Below are positions 1 to 6,110 of a stretch of DNA of 64,000 nucleotides, piece after piece. The translations under genes were made by a program, and so were the position numbers. Location of the stretch: positions 2,880,001-2,944,000 of the forward strand of contig CBDBHB010000009.1 of the NCBI GenBank assembly GCA_965205505.1, read 5' to 3'. The notes under the pieces were generated by a model. It worked only from the letters and a program-made list of their open reading frames with translations, was not told the origin of the DNA and ran no database searches. This DNA comes from Acidobacteriota bacterium (GTDB lineage: Bacteria; Acidobacteriota; UBA890; WLXD01). Every line of letters starts with the position of its first letter. Position 1 is the first letter of the stretch.

Positions 1-38
1 CGTCTTTCTGGCCGTTCTGCTCCCGGATCCACCGCCCG

Positions 39-1127
39 ATGAGGAATGCAAGCGAGGTACGTTCCTACTTCCTGGGCAACTGGCGAGAGGTCGTCCCCGA
101 AATTCTGGTAACCGGCGTGCGCGTCGGGACCGCGCCCGACGACCAAAGCATGATCGAGGTGGAGCTTCTCGGTCAGGCCGGTGCGATCCGCAGACTTCTG
201 TACCTCCCGCTGGCCTCGGGCGAGCCTCGTCAGCTGCGCGGATTGTTGCCCCGACTGCGTCGAATCGCCGCCAAGCCGGGCACCGGGGCCGGGCTCATCG
301 TGCCGCATATGGGGGCGGCCGGCGCGCGTCTGTGTCGAGAAGCGGGCATCGGGTATCTCGATTGCTCCGGTAACGCGTATTTGCGGTTCAACAACGTCTT
401 CGTACAGATCATTGGCAACCGGAATCGCTTCACGCAGCGTAAGCAGATCCGCACGTTGTTTCACGACAAGGCCACGATCCCGCTCCGCATCATGATGCAG
501 CGGCCGGGTGATTGGCTCACCACACGCGAGATTGCTGAACATGGTGATCTGAGCCTCGGCTGGGTTTCGCAGATCCTCCAGCAGATGGCCGCGGATGGCT
601 ACATCGAGCGCCAGCGTGGTGGCGGCTCGAGGCTAGTACGGCCGCAGCGGTTGCTGACCGACTGGCTCGCCGAGTACGCCTTCGAGACGAACGAGGTGTT
701 TCCCTACCAGTTGCGTGACAAGGATCCCGAGGCTGCGCTGCACCGTCTCCGGACGGTAGACGCAGACCTGTCGGATCGCTACGCCCTGACGCTCGAGTCG
801 GCCGTACATGCCCTGCAGTTGAAGCCACACCAGCGGCGACTGCCCTTCGAACTACACGTGTACGTTCCCGATCTCAACGAAGACCTGGAGAAGACGCTGG
901 ACTCCTGGCGTCGGGTGCTGGGTCTTCGCCCGGCCGGTCATGGTGCCAACTGTTTTCTCGTAAAGCCGGCGTATCGGCATGCCGTGTTCTTCGACACACA
1001 GGCAAGCCAGGGTCTGCGGACCGTCTCGGATCTTCAGCTATACCTCGACCTGTATCATTCGCCAGGAGAGGGTCGCGTGCACGCCGATAACTCGGTGGCG
1101 TCGCGACTGCCCTTCGAGGTGGGCTGA
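39..1127 (+). CDS. AbiEi-like (type IV TA antitoxin / DUF2186-like) winged-helix protein
   Basis: Central wHTH (TTREIAEHGDLSLGWVSQILQQMAADGYIER), following 'LLTDW' motif and C-terminal 'VSDLQLYLDL...GEG' typical of AbiEi_2-like proteins. Confidence 0.6.
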   Translation: MRNASEVRSYFLGNWREVVPEILVTGVRVGTAPDDQSMIEVELLGQAGAIRRLLYLPLASGEPRQLRGLLPRLRRIAAKPGTGAGLIVPHMGAAGARLCREAGIGYLDCSGNAYLRFNNVFVQIIGNRNRFTQRKQIRTLFHDKATIPLRIMMQRPGDWLTTREIAEHGDLSLGWVSQILQQMAADGYIERQRGGGSRLVRPQRLLTDWLAEYAFETNEVFPYQLRDKDPEAALHRLRTVDADLSDRYALTLESAVHALQLKPHQRRLPFELHVYVPDLNEDLEKTLDSWRRVLGLRPAGHGANCFLVKPAYRHAVFFDTQASQGLRTVSDLQLYLDLYHSPGEGRVHADNSVASRLPFEVG

Positions 1128-1159
1128 GGCCTTTCTGGTGTCACGAACGGCACCTTGAC

Positions 1160-1362
1160 CACGACCTGCTGGGGCATCGTCGACGAGGCGCAACGCCGAT
1201 ATCGCCCGCAACTGCCCGTCTGTCCGCAGGATGGCGGCGAAATCGGCCCGTCTGCGGCGTTGCTCCTCCTCTAAGATGGGCAAACATCGTCTCGTCGTCG
1301 CGCCTGGCATCCGGACCCATTTCGCCACCACGATATGCAACGATCATCTGTTACAGGCCACT
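1160..1362 (-). repeat. Truncated copy of the composite inverted-repeat element at 58806-59357 (family A terminus, plus the junction with the nested family B element)
   Basis: Near-identical reverse complement of about 58808-59010; ends in ...GCAACGATCATCTGTTACAGGCCACT. Confidence 0.9.
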
Positions 1363-1375
1363 TCTATGAGAAGGC

Positions 1376-1622
1376 GTAGTTCGGTCAAGGGCAATGTGGT
1401 GCCCAGCGAAGAATCGATCTGCACGCCATGCTCCTATTCGCACTCTGGTGGACGAGGATTCAGGTCGTCCGGTGCATTCTGGGGTCCGTCCCGATTCGAG
1501 GCGCTGCAATCTAGCTGCCGAGCTCGAAGCTCGTAGTGACCTTCGCAGTCGCCCGGACCGGGCGGTCAGATCGATAACCGTTGGGTCGCGTCGCCCTACC
1601 GACCTCCTGGTTGCGGGTTAGT
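1376..1622 (-). ncRNA. Putative bridge RNA / seekRNA of the IS1111-type element
   Basis: Non-coding region downstream of the recombinase with a stem / internal loop / hairpin; loop segments GGUCACUA and GCAGCUAG match both strands of the insertion target. Confidence 0.65.
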
Positions 1623-2668
1623 TCATGCTGCTGAAACCTCTACAGGTGCGCGCAACGGTTCGTACTCGTCTCCACTCAGCCACAGTCGGTGCAGCACAAC
1701 GGCGAGCTTACGGGCGACAGCAACTGCTGCCTTTTTGTTGCCATGAGGACCACCGCGTCCGGCCAGCTTGAGCCCCCAGCGTCTGAGCTCAGTATCGGGC
1801 CCGAAGGGGCCCAGGATGTAATGCGCCGAGCCCACCAACAGGCGTCGGAGCATTTTGTCGCCCGCCTTGGTTATTCGTAGCGCAGGGTCCTTGTCCCCCG
1901 ACTGCCGTTTCTTCGGTCTCAGTCCCAGGTACGGGCCCACGGCTCTGGAGGTATTGAACCGCTCCGGCTCCTCGAGCGTCAGCACATACGCCAGTGCGGT
2001 CAGAGCTCCGACCCCGGCCACTTGCTGGAGCTGCTGTGTCTCCGGGTATCGCCCCTGGCACAGCTGCACGATCTGACGCTCGTATTGCTGGATGTTGCCC
2101 GTCAGCATGGCGATCGTTTCAAGCACCGGCTCGAGCGCTCCCTTGAGCCGCTCCGGTATGTGCTCTGGCGCGGTGCGCGCGAACGCCGGCGTCGAGCACC
2201 TGGGAATACGACAACCGGCCGACTTGACCGCACCACGCACATGGCTCACCAACTGCGTGGGCTCTTTACCAGAGCATCTCGGCTCCGAATCACGGCTAGA
2301 TCCGCTCGCGCTTGTCTGCCTCGATGCTGCACCGTCTTAAGCAGCTTTGGGTCCATTCTGCCCACTCGTGCCAGGTGCTCGGCATCCAACCGGTCGGTCT
2401 TGTCGTGCTCGCCATAGATCAGCTTCAGCCGCCTCGGGTTAGCCACCAGCACCTCATGACCCAGTTGCTTCAACTGCTCACTCATCCACGGCGAGTGCGT
2501 TCCAACCTCCAGCACTACTCGAGCGGGCTCCTCGCACCCGAACCGCCTCGCCAGCCCCTCCGGGCTCGTCCTCACCCGCCCTTCCTCCATCACCCTGCCC
2601 TTACTGTCGAGCACGCACATACGGCTGTACCGGTCGCTTACGTCCAGTCCAATCGTTACACTCCTCAT
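1623..2668 (-). pseudogene. IS110 recombinase (DEDD_Tnp_IS110 + Transposase_20), frameshifted near 2260
   Basis: GLDVS, VVLEVG and KTDRLDA (DEDD) in the 2246-2668 frame; 'YLGLRPKKRQSG...ITKAG...AVAVARKL' in the 1623-2252 frame; a single-base shift joins them. Confidence 0.9.
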
Positions 2669-2767
2669 CGGCCAACCTCCTTGGGCTTCGAGCCCGTTAC
2701 GTTTGAAGAAACGTTTGCAGAGCCGTCAGGCTACTGCGTTCAGGAGGTTGGCCTTCTCATCTCATCT

Positions 2768-3914
2768 AGAAGGCGTCCCCAGCGCTGATCCCATGCTCCC
2801 CATTCGTGTGCCGAACAACGAGGGGCTGAAATGCGGTGTGGGGCCTGCATACCATGTCGGCGATTGGCTCAGCATCCCTTCGAACATCTTCGCCCAGTGG
2901 TCGGCGACGCCGAAAGCCATCGCGTACGGAAGGTAGCGCTCGAAGGCGGTCTCGGAAATGCTGAGGGCCTTGAAGCGGTTGGCCTCGGTACGGCCGAGGA
3001 ATTCCTCGAAGCCCTTCAGTGCAACGAAGGTCTCACGCCCCTTCACGGTTCGGGCCGGCATGAACGGCGCGAATACGCCAATGGCCAGCGCCACAAACGG
3101 GGCGGCGAAGGCCATCGCCGGCTTCTGCAGGGAGACGGCGAGCAGGATCATCGGCAACAGCGACACAACCGCTATGGCAATCCAGGTCGTGCGTGCGCGA
3201 TCAGGTCGCGAACGAAACAGACCACGCTTGGTCATGCTCCCGTAAAGCTCGTTCTTGATGCCGCTAATGCGGGTGTAGAAAGGCCCTCGAGCACCGACTT
3301 CTCGTAGGAACGTAGCGCCTCGTCGGGCAGCTTCAACCGCTGGAAGGTGGTCTTCGTGGTATCGCCGAGGTCCATGGCGGTTGGCGGAGGCCTTCAGGAA
3401 GGCTGATCTGCGCCGTTGCCGACAGAATCGGCACCGTCCAACCCATGCCGGTCACATTCCAATAGAGCTGGTCGTGTGACTCGAAGCCCTCTTCCGTGTC
3501 CGGAAATCGCAGCGCCCGACCAACGCGGTAGCGCAGGACGACGGTTCGAGACGCGTTGTTGGCGTCTGGAACCCAAACTTTGAAGCGAAAGTCGTCGCCC
3601 TCGACGCCGGCCTCGTGGCGTAGGGCGGCCCCGGTCGCCGCGGTGACCGACACAGGCTCCAAGCGGAGCCCGTAGTCAAGTCCCCACGGGGTCTCGTACT
3701 TGATCGGAATGTCTCGATAAATACCGTTGAACGAACCCTCGAAATGAAACGTGAGGCGCTCGGTGACATCGATCTCGCCGCTCTCCAGCACGCGGATGTC
3801 GGCTTCGAAAGACTCGACCCAGTATTGTCGCCCCTGAGCCTCCACGGCGCCCGGTGCGATGTACGAGACAAGCACCATGAGGACTACCGCTGAGGCCGCG
3901 CTCCGCCTACTCAT
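2768..3914 (-). pseudogene. DUF2207-family membrane protein (LemA-associated), fragmented and truncated
   Basis: N-terminal 'VTERLTFHFEGSFNGIYRDIP...LYWNVTG.GW.VPI' and C-terminal 'FERYLPYAMAFGVADHWAKMFE'; split into frames and the Gly-rich tail is missing at the IS junction. Confidence 0.8.
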
Positions 3915-4476
3915 CCAGATCCACCCGTACCGCCTGCCGCTCTCGAGGGCTGTCCACTTCGAAAAACTCGCGTGCTGCGAACCCCATGGGCGAAGCCACT
4001 AGCATTGCCGGAAAGCTCGCGATCGCGGTGTTGTGGTCACGAATCACGGCGTTGTAATAGCGTCGCGCCGACTGCAGGTCGTCCTCGATCTCCGAGAGCT
4101 GTCGCTGCAGCGTTCCATACCGTTCGCTGGCCCGGATCTCTGGATAGGCCTCGGCGAGCGCGAACAGGCCACGTAGGGCCCCCACGAGGCCGTTCTCGAT
4201 CTGTGATGCATCAGCGTCAGGAAGGCGTCGTCCCTCGACATGCTGCTGGGCCTCCGTACGCATTCGAGTGACCGCCTCGAGGGTGCCCTTCTCGTGCGCC
4301 GCGTAACCCTTCACGACTTCGACCAGTGAAGGTACGACATCGTGGCGACGTTTGAGCTGGGCGTCGATATCGCCCCAGGCGCCCTCGGCACGTTTCTGCA
4401 GTCCGACGAGGCGGTTGTATAGAATTACCGGCCCGGCTACCAGCAAGGCTACGAGGAGGCCGAACGCCCACAGCAC
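3907..4476 (-). CDS. lemA: LemA family protein
   Basis: 'AWGDIDAQLKRRHD', 'VKGYAAHE', 'AEAYP', 'ARRYYN' motifs. Confidence 0.93.
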   Translation of the reverse strand: MLWAFGLLVALLVAGPVILYNRLVGLQKRAEGAWGDIDAQLKRRHDVVPSLVEVVKGYAAHEKGTLEAVTRMRTEAQQHVEGRRLPDADASQIENGLVGALRGLFALAEAYPEIRASERYGTLQRQLSEIEDDLQSARRYYNAVIRDHNTAIASFPAMLVASPMGFAAREFFEVDSPRERQAVRVDLDE

Positions 4477-4540
4477 GACTCAGTCCCCTCCGGGTTGCTC
4501 GGCCCAGGCGTGGGATTGGCGCATCGCGAGGGTCCAGTGC

Positions 4541-5944
4541 TCAGCCCATGCCCTCGGTCAGCGTCTCGAGGAAGTCACGATTGCTCTCGGTTTGCCGCAG
4601 ACGCTTGAGCAGCAGCTCCATGGCTTCGTCTGCCGGCACCGCCGCCAGCGCTTTGCGTAGCATCCAGATGCGCTGCAGGTCGACGGAGTCCAGTAGTAGC
4701 TCTTCCTTGCGAGTGCCTGACTTGTTGAGCTCGATGGCCGGAAAGATGCGTTTGTCGGCGAGCTTGCGGTCCAACACGATCTCGCAGTTACCGGTGCCTT
4801 TGAACTCCTCGAAGATCACTTCATCCATGCGGCTGCCGGTCTCGATCAGCGCGGTCGCGACGATGGTCAACGAGCCCCCCTCCTCGACTGCGCGCGCCGA
4901 GCCGAAGAACTTTTTCGGTTTCTCCAAAGCGTTGGCGTCGACGCCACCGGTCAGCACACGGCCCGACGACGGGGTGACCGTGTTGTGGGCGCGGGCCAGC
5001 CGTGTGAGCGAGTCCAGGAGGATCACCACGTCGTGTCCGCTCTCCACCATTCGGCGAGCCTTTTCGAGCACAATCTCGCCAACCGCCGTATGACGACTGG
5101 CAGGCTCGTCGAACGTCGAGTACACGACCTCGCCGCGTACCGACCGGCGCATATCGGTGACCTCTTCGGGTCGCTCGTCGAGCAGCAAGACGATGAGCTT
5201 TACGTCGGGGTGATTATGGGCGAGCGCCTGGGCGATGGCCTGCAGCAGAATTGTCTTGCCCGCGCGCGGCGGCGAGACGATCAGCGCCCGCTGCCCGAAT
5301 CCCAACGGACTCAGCAGGTCGATGACGCGGCCGATGAGGTCATCGCCAGGTATCTCGACCTTGATTTGGCGCTCCGGATGATAGGGCGTCAGGCTCTTGA
5401 ACAGAGCGCGCTCGAGCGCTTTGTTCGGGGTGTCGTAGTTGATGGAATCGATCTGCACCAGCGCGAAGTACTTCTCACCTTGCTTGGGTGGCCTGATGCT
5501 GCCGGCGAGCGTATCCCCGGTAAGCAGATTGAAGCGCCGGATCTGGGTAGGGGAGACGTAGACGTCCTCAGGCCCGGGCAAGTACGAGTGTTCCGCGGAA
5601 CGGATGAACCCGTAGCCGTCGGGCAGGCGCTCAAGCACGCCTTGCTTGTAAACCAGGCCGTTCTCTTTCGCTTGGGCGCGCAGGCAGGCGTCGATCAGCA
5701 CCTCGGCCTCGAGCTCGGTGGGGTTCTCCACCTTGAGCTCGCGGGCAATCTCCAGAAGCGCCGCCGGGCGCGCCTCCATCAGATCGTCGACGCTATGCGC
5801 GTCCTGCAGCAGCAGCGCCGTGTCCTCGTCGCGCGGCGGGGTGAAATTCTGTGGTTGGTTTGGTTGGTCGCGACGCCTTCCACGTCCACCGCGGGAGCGC
5901 CGCCGACCGCGCCGCCGGCGCTGCCGTTGTTGCTGGTCTGTCAT
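4541..5944 (-). CDS. rho: Transcription termination factor Rho
   Basis: 'DGYGFIRS', P-loop SPPRAGKT, 'DERPEEVT', 'FEEFKGTGN'. Confidence 0.98.
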
Positions 5945-6110
5945 GGAGTGAAGCCCCAGTTGGGAGAAAGTCGAGTCGCGCTCCTCTCGTGATTCGCGGA
6001 AAGCTCAGCGACCCGATCGCGCTCGGACACACTCGATCCGGGCGAGCAGTGACTCGGGGGGGCCGGCGCCGACCGTGTTGAGAAAACTGGGCGCCTGGCC
6101 GATTGAGGTC

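Follow-up and report, generated by a model that had tools for sequence, protein, structure and literature searches.

A probable guide RNA encoded by an IS1111-type insertion sequence residing at the termini of a miniature inverted-repeat transposable element

During the follow-up of a first-pass annotation of a 64,000-nucleotide stretch of DNA from an Acidobacteriota bacterium (assembly GCA_965205505.1, contig CBDBHB010000009.1, positions 2,880,001 to 2,944,000 of the forward strand; the whole stretch is hereafter designated the window, and positions are counted from its first letter), we found that positions 1363-2767 very probably constitute an IS1111-type insertion sequence (IS), the 3' non-coding region of which encodes a guide RNA of the kind termed seekRNA or bridge RNA. 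The predicted RNA has a two-domain scaffold that is conserved among relatives of the element, and the segments assigned as target guides change together with the target from one relative to another, a strongly positive indication of natural reprogramming for both guides. RNA-guided IS1111-type systems are a known kind, the mechanism of which was published in 2024, and the element is an added member of the seekRNA/bridge RNA class. The comparisons described below support the first-pass annotation in nearly every detail, and its central reading, that of a natural RNA-guided recombinase, found support in every test open to sequence alone.

IS110/IS1111 RNA-guided recombinases are under development for genome writing, and the IS1111 branch is the less studied one. 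The locus adds no new principle; it provides a clean natural case in which one scaffold is carried by about two dozen relatives with different, identifiable targets.

Target guides and landing site

The element, its target and the two target guides are located as follows.

1363..2767, minus strand: complete IS1111-type insertion sequence, 1405 bp, with ends taken from copies versus empty sites
1331..1362, minus strand: target, consisting of the core AG (1362-1361) and the 32-nt terminal inverted repeat AGTGGCCTGTAACAG... of a miniature inverted-repeat transposable element (MITE), the body of which extends to ~1160
2768..2769, minus strand: left-flank CT of the target
1534..1542, minus strand: 5' target guide AGGUCACUA, pairing with the top (IS-sense) strand TAGTGGCCT, that is, -1, the core AG and +3 to +8
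1511..1518, minus strand: 3' target guide GCAGCUAG, the last four bases of which, CUAG, equal the left-flank CT plus the core AG, followed by a conserved AU and helix P2

The longest RNA:target duplex in the non-coding region is that between AGGUCACUA and TAGTGGCCT (9 nt, one U:G wobble). The first loop strand had been placed at 1534-1541 with one U:G wobble, which holds, the duplex being in fact one base longer. The guide U forms a wobble with the common G variant at +5 and a Watson-Crick pair with the rarer A variant, which is present at one occupied site. The second loop strand had been given as 1511-1518, ending in CUAG and complementary to the other DNA strand; the segment is present as described, and its assignment to the other strand does not follow from CUAG alone because this tetranucleotide is palindromic (CTAG). 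Since the match between loop and target within the window element alone is marginal, the case for the guide rests on relatives.

Relatives were obtained by a protein search of 401 genomes of the phylum, which returned transposases 47-58% identical in 18 genomes and, in one genome from the same order, a disrupted copy of a relative with 67-68% identity; a scan of a genome collection added one further relative (43% identical). A single-protein scan with one genome per species gave one locus only, the relatives having come from the phylum search. All relatives share the same end repeats, each in a different flank. Left out before the count were the near-duplicates L074 and L063, L061 without a right flank, the same-element copies L052, L070, L062 and L076, and L055 from an unpublished genome; no claim depends on the unpublished genome G166.

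For 19 independent elements with different targets, the 5' guide gave a cognate mean of 7.92 versus a non-cognate mean of 4.31, a result reached by none of the permutations (0/20000), and the own target ranked first for 13 of the 19; the window element scored 8.5 with its own target versus a non-cognate maximum of 5.5. Homologues of the 3' guide likewise repeat their own left flank plus core (cognate 6.42 versus non-cognate 3.87; 0/20000 permutations; own flank first for 12 of 18). These results give a positive answer, for either guide, to the check on loop-target covariation that the first-pass annotation had set beforehand. Moreover, the right flank of the closest relative, L022, was predicted from its loop before the right end was located, and the flank found, AGAGTCCG, was as predicted. 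Five held-out members were found by the covariance model alone, and in both testable ones the guide suits the element's own flank (L084, 9 pairs with one wobble; L085, 9/10); L083, L088 and L091 stood outside this test, with a right end not found or a degenerate loop. A pairing of GAAGGUCA (1544-1537) with the left subterminal repeat of the element was judged coincidental, the repeat being constant in relatives and the loop variable.

The empty site was rebuilt from 38 IS-free copies of the flanking repeat and 30 left junctions, and reads nnCT-AGTGGCCTGTAAC in IS sense and GGCCACTAG on the plus strand of the window, with CTAGTGGCCT as the target sequence for the element (a hyphen separates the left flank from the core). 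All copies of the element are located at CT-AGTG(G/A)CCT, or GGYCACTAG on the plus strand of the window. The right flank AGTGGCCT is constant at +1 to +8 in 21 of 22 right junctions, the remaining one reading AGTGACCT, and at 3 occupied sites the similarity to the MITE stops directly after +8/+9. On the left, occupied sites have C at -2 in 26/28 and T at -1 in 27/28 cases, and empty sites have each base in 69/74. The flanking repeat carries 32-nt terminal inverted repeats (AGTGGCCTGTAACAGATGATCGTTGCATATCG) with CT...AG on their outer sides and fits a MITE; 74 free MITE termini were counted in the genome, 69 of which have CT ahead. The site is thus, as judged from these junctions, the boundary between the MITE terminal inverted repeat and its flank, in agreement with the first-pass annotation, which had named the MITE terminus as the target. 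The CT before one terminus and the AG after the other would be consistent with integration of the MITE at CTAG and duplication of TA, as in IS630-type elements. Some MITE termini lie head to head as perfect palindromes (CACT-AGTG), and the element almost never uses them. Within the window, the joined empty site has a single counterpart with 2 mismatches, which is at chance level, and the empty sites used here come from the whole genome.

Comparison of occupied and empty sites also bears on the reach of the 3' guide. Left flanks ending in AGCT, which match the guide at -4/-3, were found at 4/28 occupied versus 0/74 empty sites (p = 0.005), and CACT, the commonest left flank of empty sites, at 1/28 versus 27/74 (p = 0.0004). 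Taken singly, A at -4 was enriched (11/28 occupied versus 6/74 empty) and G at -3 weakly so (9/28 versus 11/74; p = 0.09), and no difference was seen at -5 between the 28 occupied and 74 empty sites. Pairing out to -5/-6 found no support, given the missing effect at -5 and a depletion of G at -6; the pairing of the 3' guide seems to count as far as about -4. As for the specificity GGYCACTAG(C) proposed earlier, GGYCACTAG stands, including the A variant, and the terminal C is borne out in part, all four AGCT flanks being occupied (4/4) and CACT being under-used. Collectively, the 28 used and 74 unused sites show which positions matter: +1 to +8 are invariant, -3/-4 contribute, and a wobble is tolerated at +5. 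Together with the relatives on their shared scaffold, these sites could reveal how IS1111-type guides pair and recognize their donors.

Scaffold of the predicted RNA and its donor domain

The predicted RNA is composed of the following parts.

1413..1575, minus strand: predicted full guide RNA (long seekRNA or bridge RNA), ~163 nt, from fold and covariance model
1575-1567 with 1421-1413, minus strand: predicted helix P0, closing the full RNA
1486..1565, minus strand: target-binding domain, 80 nt, with P1, P2 and an internal loop containing a hairpin
1565-1557 with 1495-1486, minus strand: predicted helix P1, from cognate duplex energies
1554-1545 with 1507-1499, minus strand: helix P2, A1549 bulged, with compensatory changes
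1519..1533, minus strand: hairpin CGAGCU-UCG-AGCUCG in the target loop, differing in length and sequence among relatives, with covarying pairs
1439..1476, minus strand: helix P3 (1476-1472 with 1443-1439) around the donor-domain hairpin (1470-1450)
1431..1437, minus strand: 3' donor guide AUAGGAG, directly 3' of P3, repeating the right end ATAGA and the core AG with one G:T wobble
1477..1484, minus strand: candidate 5' donor guide CCCCAGAA, directly 5' of P3, weak in the window element

Read on the minus strand, the target-binding part runs GGCGACUGCGAA (1553-1542), GGUCACUA (1541-1534), CGAGCU-UCG-AGCUCG (1533-1519), GCAGCUAG (1518-1511) and AUUGCAGCGCC (1510-1500). This is the stem, internal loop and hairpin quoted in the first-pass annotation, and the sequence was confirmed on the minus strand at 1553-1500. 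The interval given there, 1504-1553, encloses the right structure with too high a lower limit, the stem reaching 1499/1500. Similarly, most of the proposed stem holds, apart from its GAA/AUU portion, which is not conserved in relatives; the limit of the conserved stem is C1545-G1507.

The stem, loop and hairpin were recovered in the minimum-free-energy fold of the whole 3' non-coding region (z = -2.2; 4/200 shuffles as good), and covariance model R1 matches 1572-1425 at 107.3 bits. In a plain alignment of 24 sequences, 6 of the 9 pairs of P2 have compensatory changes and 97.2% of cells are paired; for the 17 pairs of P2, the base of the target-loop hairpin and P3 taken together, 0/500 shuffles reached the observed value, and sliding one strand lowered pairing to 26-48%. 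In the plain MAFFT alignment, the variable hairpins and P1 are out of register, so that P2 and P3 are what can be counted there, and the hairpins were assessed via the covariance model. Realignment with this model gave 23 pairs in four helices that are 93.3% paired, 15 of them changed on both sides (0/500 shuffles; slid controls 30-45%). Within this realignment, the helix of the target-loop hairpin (helix 2) has 3 of 4 pairs changed on both sides, the donor-domain hairpin helix has all 5 pairs so changed, and P3 is 96.7% paired. P1 and P0 were judged solely by duplex energies, which were better for cognate than for non-cognate combinations, with 9/20000 and 4/20000 permutations as low, respectively; in both helices, the effect was uneven across elements.

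Across relatives, the non-coding scaffold is constant as GGGCGACUGCG - variable - hairpin - variable - AGAUGGCAGCGCC ... CCCCANCAUGCAC - hairpin - AGAGUGCGAAU(G/A)GAAGC. The sizes of 80 nt for the target domain and ~163 nt for the whole RNA may be set beside 82-96 nt for the short and 148-172 nt for the long forms in the literature (PMC13604230). The RNA model has 31 matches in the genome, all within mapped copies or fragments of the element, and no free-standing RNA gene was seen among them.

On the donor side, the 7-mer homologous to AUAGGAG equals the element's own last five bases plus core, exactly in 19/21 elements, in agreement with the first-pass annotation, which had proposed AUAGGAG (1431-1437) as a donor guide with one wobble. 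Its three variants, ATGGAAG, ATAGAAG and ATAGAAA, vary in step with the extension at the right end, which is GGA or AGA, and with the core, which is AG or AA. The two inexact 7-mers belong to the window element, in which one G replaces the A of the DNA and forms a G:T wobble, and to L073, with one mismatch. The latter copy (genome G262) has a right flank starting with GG instead of AG, its donor 7-mer reading AUGGAUG, and may have recombined at an imperfect core.

A left donor guide had been described as not evident, which agrees with the present finding that the best candidate, 5' of P3, is weak in the window element and mismatched with its left end. In relatives, the corresponding CCCA(N)C is complementary to the left-end GATGGG and changes in step with it in L075, L059 and L069. 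Another candidate for the left donor guide, CUCGUC (1456-1451), was rejected because these bases belong to the stem of the donor-domain hairpin, on its 3' side. Located between P1 and P3, the donor bases would be part of a multi-loop if the predicted P0 closes the RNA. One sub-clade (L077, L064, L074 and L063) has the core AA for AG and the left end AAATGGG; left end, right flank, 3' target guide and 3' donor guide are altered together in it, and the candidate 5' donor guide has kept its C facing the second core position.

Alternative readings, strand and transcription

Several observations weigh against the reading of this region as a guide RNA. A duplex as good with either strand of the 15-nt site arose in 319/5000 dinucleotide shuffles of the non-coding region, and the 3' guide of the window element consists of 4 invariant matching bases only (CUAG, 1514-1511), which are palindromic and rank the cognate flank 3 of 18. 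Six of the 19 5' guides (L056, L057, L059, L077, L068 and L069) fail to rank their own target first; for the 3' guide, the misses are L075, L056, L072, L064, L061 and the window element itself, the left flanks of which vary beyond CT. G at -6, expected from the guide, is depleted at occupied sites (3/28 versus 32/74 empty). The 5' donor candidate does not fit the left end of the window element (CCCA versus TGAG), and likewise in L022. As for the structure, the covariance-model alignment (A3) was fitted to the very structure tested and favors it, the relatives are kin and not independent samples, and the minimum-free-energy fold lacks P3, the helix favored by comparison. An Rfam scan of window positions 1-6000 on both strands with E up to 1 gave 0 matches. 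In single-sequence folding, the two strands score alike (z = -2.8 sense, -2.6 antisense). Finally, the element, including 1364-1893 and beyond, occurs in 4 metatranscriptome runs of one study solely as assembled contigs, which give no strand, ends or level and may reflect DNA carry-over.

If the stem-loop were a chance structure, or a terminator or stabilizer 3' of the transposase gene with a coincidental likeness to the target, the marginal match just described would fit, and the region is indeed GC-rich and folds only modestly better than shuffles. Such an origin is nevertheless hardly credible, because conservation and covariation of the scaffold extend over elements whose transposases share 43-58% identity, the loop segments follow each element's own flanks in a manner that no permutation reproduced, and no U-tract comes after the hairpin.

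The similar folding energies of the two strands, together with the appearance of the element in RNA libraries as contigs only, would also suit a DNA hairpin or cruciform read by the transposase, as in single-strand transposons, with RNA uninvolved. We consider this quite improbable. The structure lies 130-210 nt inside the right end, away from the cleavage site, and RNA of the homologous region co-purifies with the transposase in ISEc11, ISPa11, ISKpn4 and ISPst6, the ISEc11 region being required and suppliable in trans (PMC11187229). Furthermore, at the two positions where the guides pair imperfectly, a sense RNA would form U:G and G:T wobbles and an antisense RNA A:C and C:A mismatches, and P3 keeps U:G in 18/24 sequences; on both counts, the sense strand is favored, in keeping with a sense RNA.

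A regulatory small RNA for transposase expression, like Asr9/Ssr9 of ISPpu9, that guides nothing to a target is a third possibility, with a precedent in the same wider family: in ISPpu9 (PMC12288879), a downstream small-RNA gene is dispensable for transposition. A regulator, however, would have no need of loop segments that track external flanks or of a 7-mer reproducing the right end and core, and we regard this explanation as very improbable.

The guide RNA is a predicted one, and its presence in metatranscriptome contigs does not amount to transcription. In 3/4 runs, the word depth of contigs over 1364-2077 was 16.5-18.5 versus 4-7 over the 5' half of the gene; this step was discarded as RNA evidence since a variant-split assembly would look alike. 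No circle-junction joint was seen in the metatranscriptome contigs. A likely promoter element is located in the right end:

1383..1388, minus strand: TTGACC, likely -35 element, its promoter being complete only once the circle junction has formed

TTGAC is present in 17/17 aligned relatives, 26 nt from the right end, with the hexamers TAGAAG or GAAGAT lying 16 or 18 nt downstream of it across the junction. By analogy with the behavior of the family (PMC11187229), TTGACC may belong to a junction promoter.

The element, its copies and known RNA-guided systems

The ends and the gene of the element are as follows.

2750..2767, minus strand: left end, with a 7-nt extension AGATGAG (2767-2761) that starts with the AG core, then the subterminal inverted repeat ATGAGAAGGCC (2760-2750)
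1363..1376, minus strand: right end, with the subterminal repeat GGCCTTCTCAT, then a 3-nt extension AGA
1623..2668, minus strand: DEDD transposase gene, as frames 2668-2246 and 2252-1623, split by a 1-nt deletion relative to intact copies

Alignment of copies to one another and to unoccupied sites fixed the ends at 2767 and 1363; the genome contains 28 full-length copies, 98-100% identical, in addition to fragments. Membership in the IS1111 group was assigned by the published hallmarks (PMC11187229), namely domains, motif, ends, downstream region and absence of a target duplication, all of which were found here. Thus, the two broken frames match PF01548 (E 1.3e-15) and PF02371 (E 3.3e-17), the DEDD RuvC-like N-terminal domain and the C-terminal domain, and the intact protein scores 205.5 bits with NCBIfam NF033542, 'IS110 family RNA-guided transposase' (cut-off 140). 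The 348-amino-acid (aa) translation contains GLRPKKRQSG, fitting the motif GL-P----S(T)G and the length of 330-350 aa described for the group (PMC11187229). The subterminal inverted repeats ATGAGAAGGCC and GGCCTTCTCAT are 11 bp long, within the 7-17 bp of the group, and are followed outward by the extensions characteristic of it, the left one 7 nt and the right one 3 nt in length; ATGAGAAGGCC is kept in relatives with 43-58% identical transposases, and position 1376 is C in the window copy and in 3/21 aligned copies in all. The non-coding region is long downstream, spanning 260 nt between stop codon and right end versus 99 nt upstream. AG is single in empty sites and flanks the element on both sides when occupied (empty, CT-AG-TGGCC; occupied, CT-[AG...AGA]-AG-TGGCC), which corresponds to a specific target without target-site duplication.

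An intact 348-aa reading frame is present in 10/28 copies. Among 21 aligned copies, a 4-bp deletion recurs in 8/21 and a 1-bp deletion in 5/21, the window copy included; relative to the latter, contigs of 3 RNA-library runs have one extra base after 2259. Because each lesion is common to several copies, the frameshifts are not random sequencing errors, and defective copies have multiplied, presumably with the transposase of intact copies. The guide positions are invariant across the 21 aligned copies. The window copy, with a defective transposase and an unchanged RNA, would depend on the transposase of intact copies both for moving and for supplying guide RNA. The transposase is distant from named elements: a tblastn search of 72,556 plasmid records gave a best match of 36% identity and no named element, and the similarity of the protein to IS621 and ISCro4 is confined to the C-terminal domain (E 6e-8 and 6e-9).

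Of 26 genomes from the order, 18 contain the MITE. In the genus, three of the four other genomes gave 44-52 matches to it, and the transposase was found in none of the four. The element therefore looks like a recent arrival that has colonized an older repeat family.

Drawing on the published mechanism of the family, the element would excise as a circle, and joining of its ends would complete the promoter headed by TTGACC (1388-1383). The transposase would then bind the RNA, the two domains of which would pair with circle junction and target, respectively, and strands would be exchanged at the AG core without target duplication. In the target-binding domain, sequence comparison shows the 5' segment 1542-1534 to be the complement of the top strand from -1 across the AG core to +8, and the 3' segment 1518-1511, which repeats the left flank and core, to match the bottom strand; the two jointly specify CT-AGTG(G/A)CCT in this genome. 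In the second domain, 1437-1431, just 3' of P3, repeats the right end plus core and would serve the donor side.

This arrangement resembles that of the seekRNAs of the IS1111-family elements ISEc11, ISPa11, ISKpn4 and ISPst6 (Siddiquee et al. 2024, PMC11187229). These four elements likewise have a DEDD transposase of 330-350 aa with the GL-P----SG motif, subterminal inverted repeats, a 7-nt left extension and a long non-coding region downstream of the gene, and lack a target duplication. In their seekRNAs, as generally in those of the IS1111 family, the segment matching the top strand is located 5' of that matching the bottom strand, the two overlapping at the insertion point, and a short domain of ~80 nt is contained within a longer form of ~160 nt; natural retargeting between relatives on a shared scaffold is also known. 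The likeness to the window RNA is drawn from the published description. The present target differs, being a MITE terminus and not a REP (repetitive extragenic palindromic) sequence, an attC site or plain sequence, and the window element shows a donor-matching 7-mer in addition to the target matches that alone are given in the published seekRNA work.

With the IS621/IS110 bridge RNA (Durrant et al. 2024, PMC11208160; structures 8wt6 and others), the window RNA shares the combination of target- and donor-binding parts in one molecule, each part with a guide per DNA strand flanking the core dinucleotide, the 5' donor guide of the window RNA being a candidate. In that study, bridge RNAs are predicted in the right end of 93% of IS1111-group elements, the donor-binding bases often being in a multi-loop, and the window RNA, with its donor bases between P1 and P3 inside the predicted P0, fits this pattern. 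In contrast to the IS621/IS110 RNA, which is encoded in the left end 5' of the gene, the window RNA is located 3' of the gene, and its order of guide strands is reversed; its core is AG in the element sense (CT on the other strand), and its candidate 5' donor guide is poorly matched.

The use of ends or palindromes of other mobile elements as landing sites also has parallels in IS1111 of Coxiella burnetii, 20/21 copies of which lie within QMITE2 in one strain (PMC5896051), and in IS4321/IS5075, which reportedly land in the inverted repeats of Tn21-type transposons. Compared with the QMITE2 case, the MITE and the target are different ones, the site in the window spanning the MITE terminus plus the flanking CT. 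ISPpu9 of Pseudomonas putida (PMC12288879) also inserts into repeats, and its transposase moves non-autonomous derivatives; an AG recombination core is described there for ISPpu9 and cited for other members of the family. Whereas the downstream small RNA of ISPpu9 is dispensable and its ends form no junction promoter, the window RNA has both target and donor matches and a conserved -35 element in the right end. The clade of the window element was not described in the literature searched on seekRNA/bridge RNA and on IS1111-MITE associations, a search that did not extend to ISfinder and supplementary tables.

A broader reading that joins several of these features may be offered tentatively, as possible and still rather doubtful. 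In the clade with AGATGGG plus ATGAGAAGGCC at the left end, the donor code would be asymmetric: the right end plus core would be read by an exact 7-nt guide, and the left end mostly through the protein-recognized subterminal repeat with only loose RNA contact. One wobble U would serve both the G and A alleles of the MITE terminus in this genome, and guide-bearing non-autonomous copies (13/21 aligned copies, with shared frameshifts and an unchanged RNA gene) would persist and spread in dependence on intact ones. If this is true, a natural series of >20 guide-target pairs on one scaffold would be available, from which the pairing rules of IS1111-type recombinases could be derived.

Some minor observations concern individual copies and neighboring genes. 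L068 (genome G268) adjoins another copy or is nested in one, because a stretch from the element's own non-coding region recurs exactly in the first 14 nt beyond its right end; the 5' guide of L068 shows no match to this flank. L088 and L091 (genome G075) are RNA copies that retain the donor domain and right end and are devoid of the 5' half of the target loop, and are probably decayed elements. On the plus strand of the window, a 362-aa frame at 39-1127, which stops ~30 nt ahead of the MITE, matches the MarR_2 winged helix at 28.1 bits (cut-off 27) and Rrf2 at 26.6 bits, below the cut-off of 30. On the minus strand, the translation of a 467-aa frame at 4541-5944 is suggestive of transcription termination factor Rho bearing an arginine-rich extension at its N terminus.

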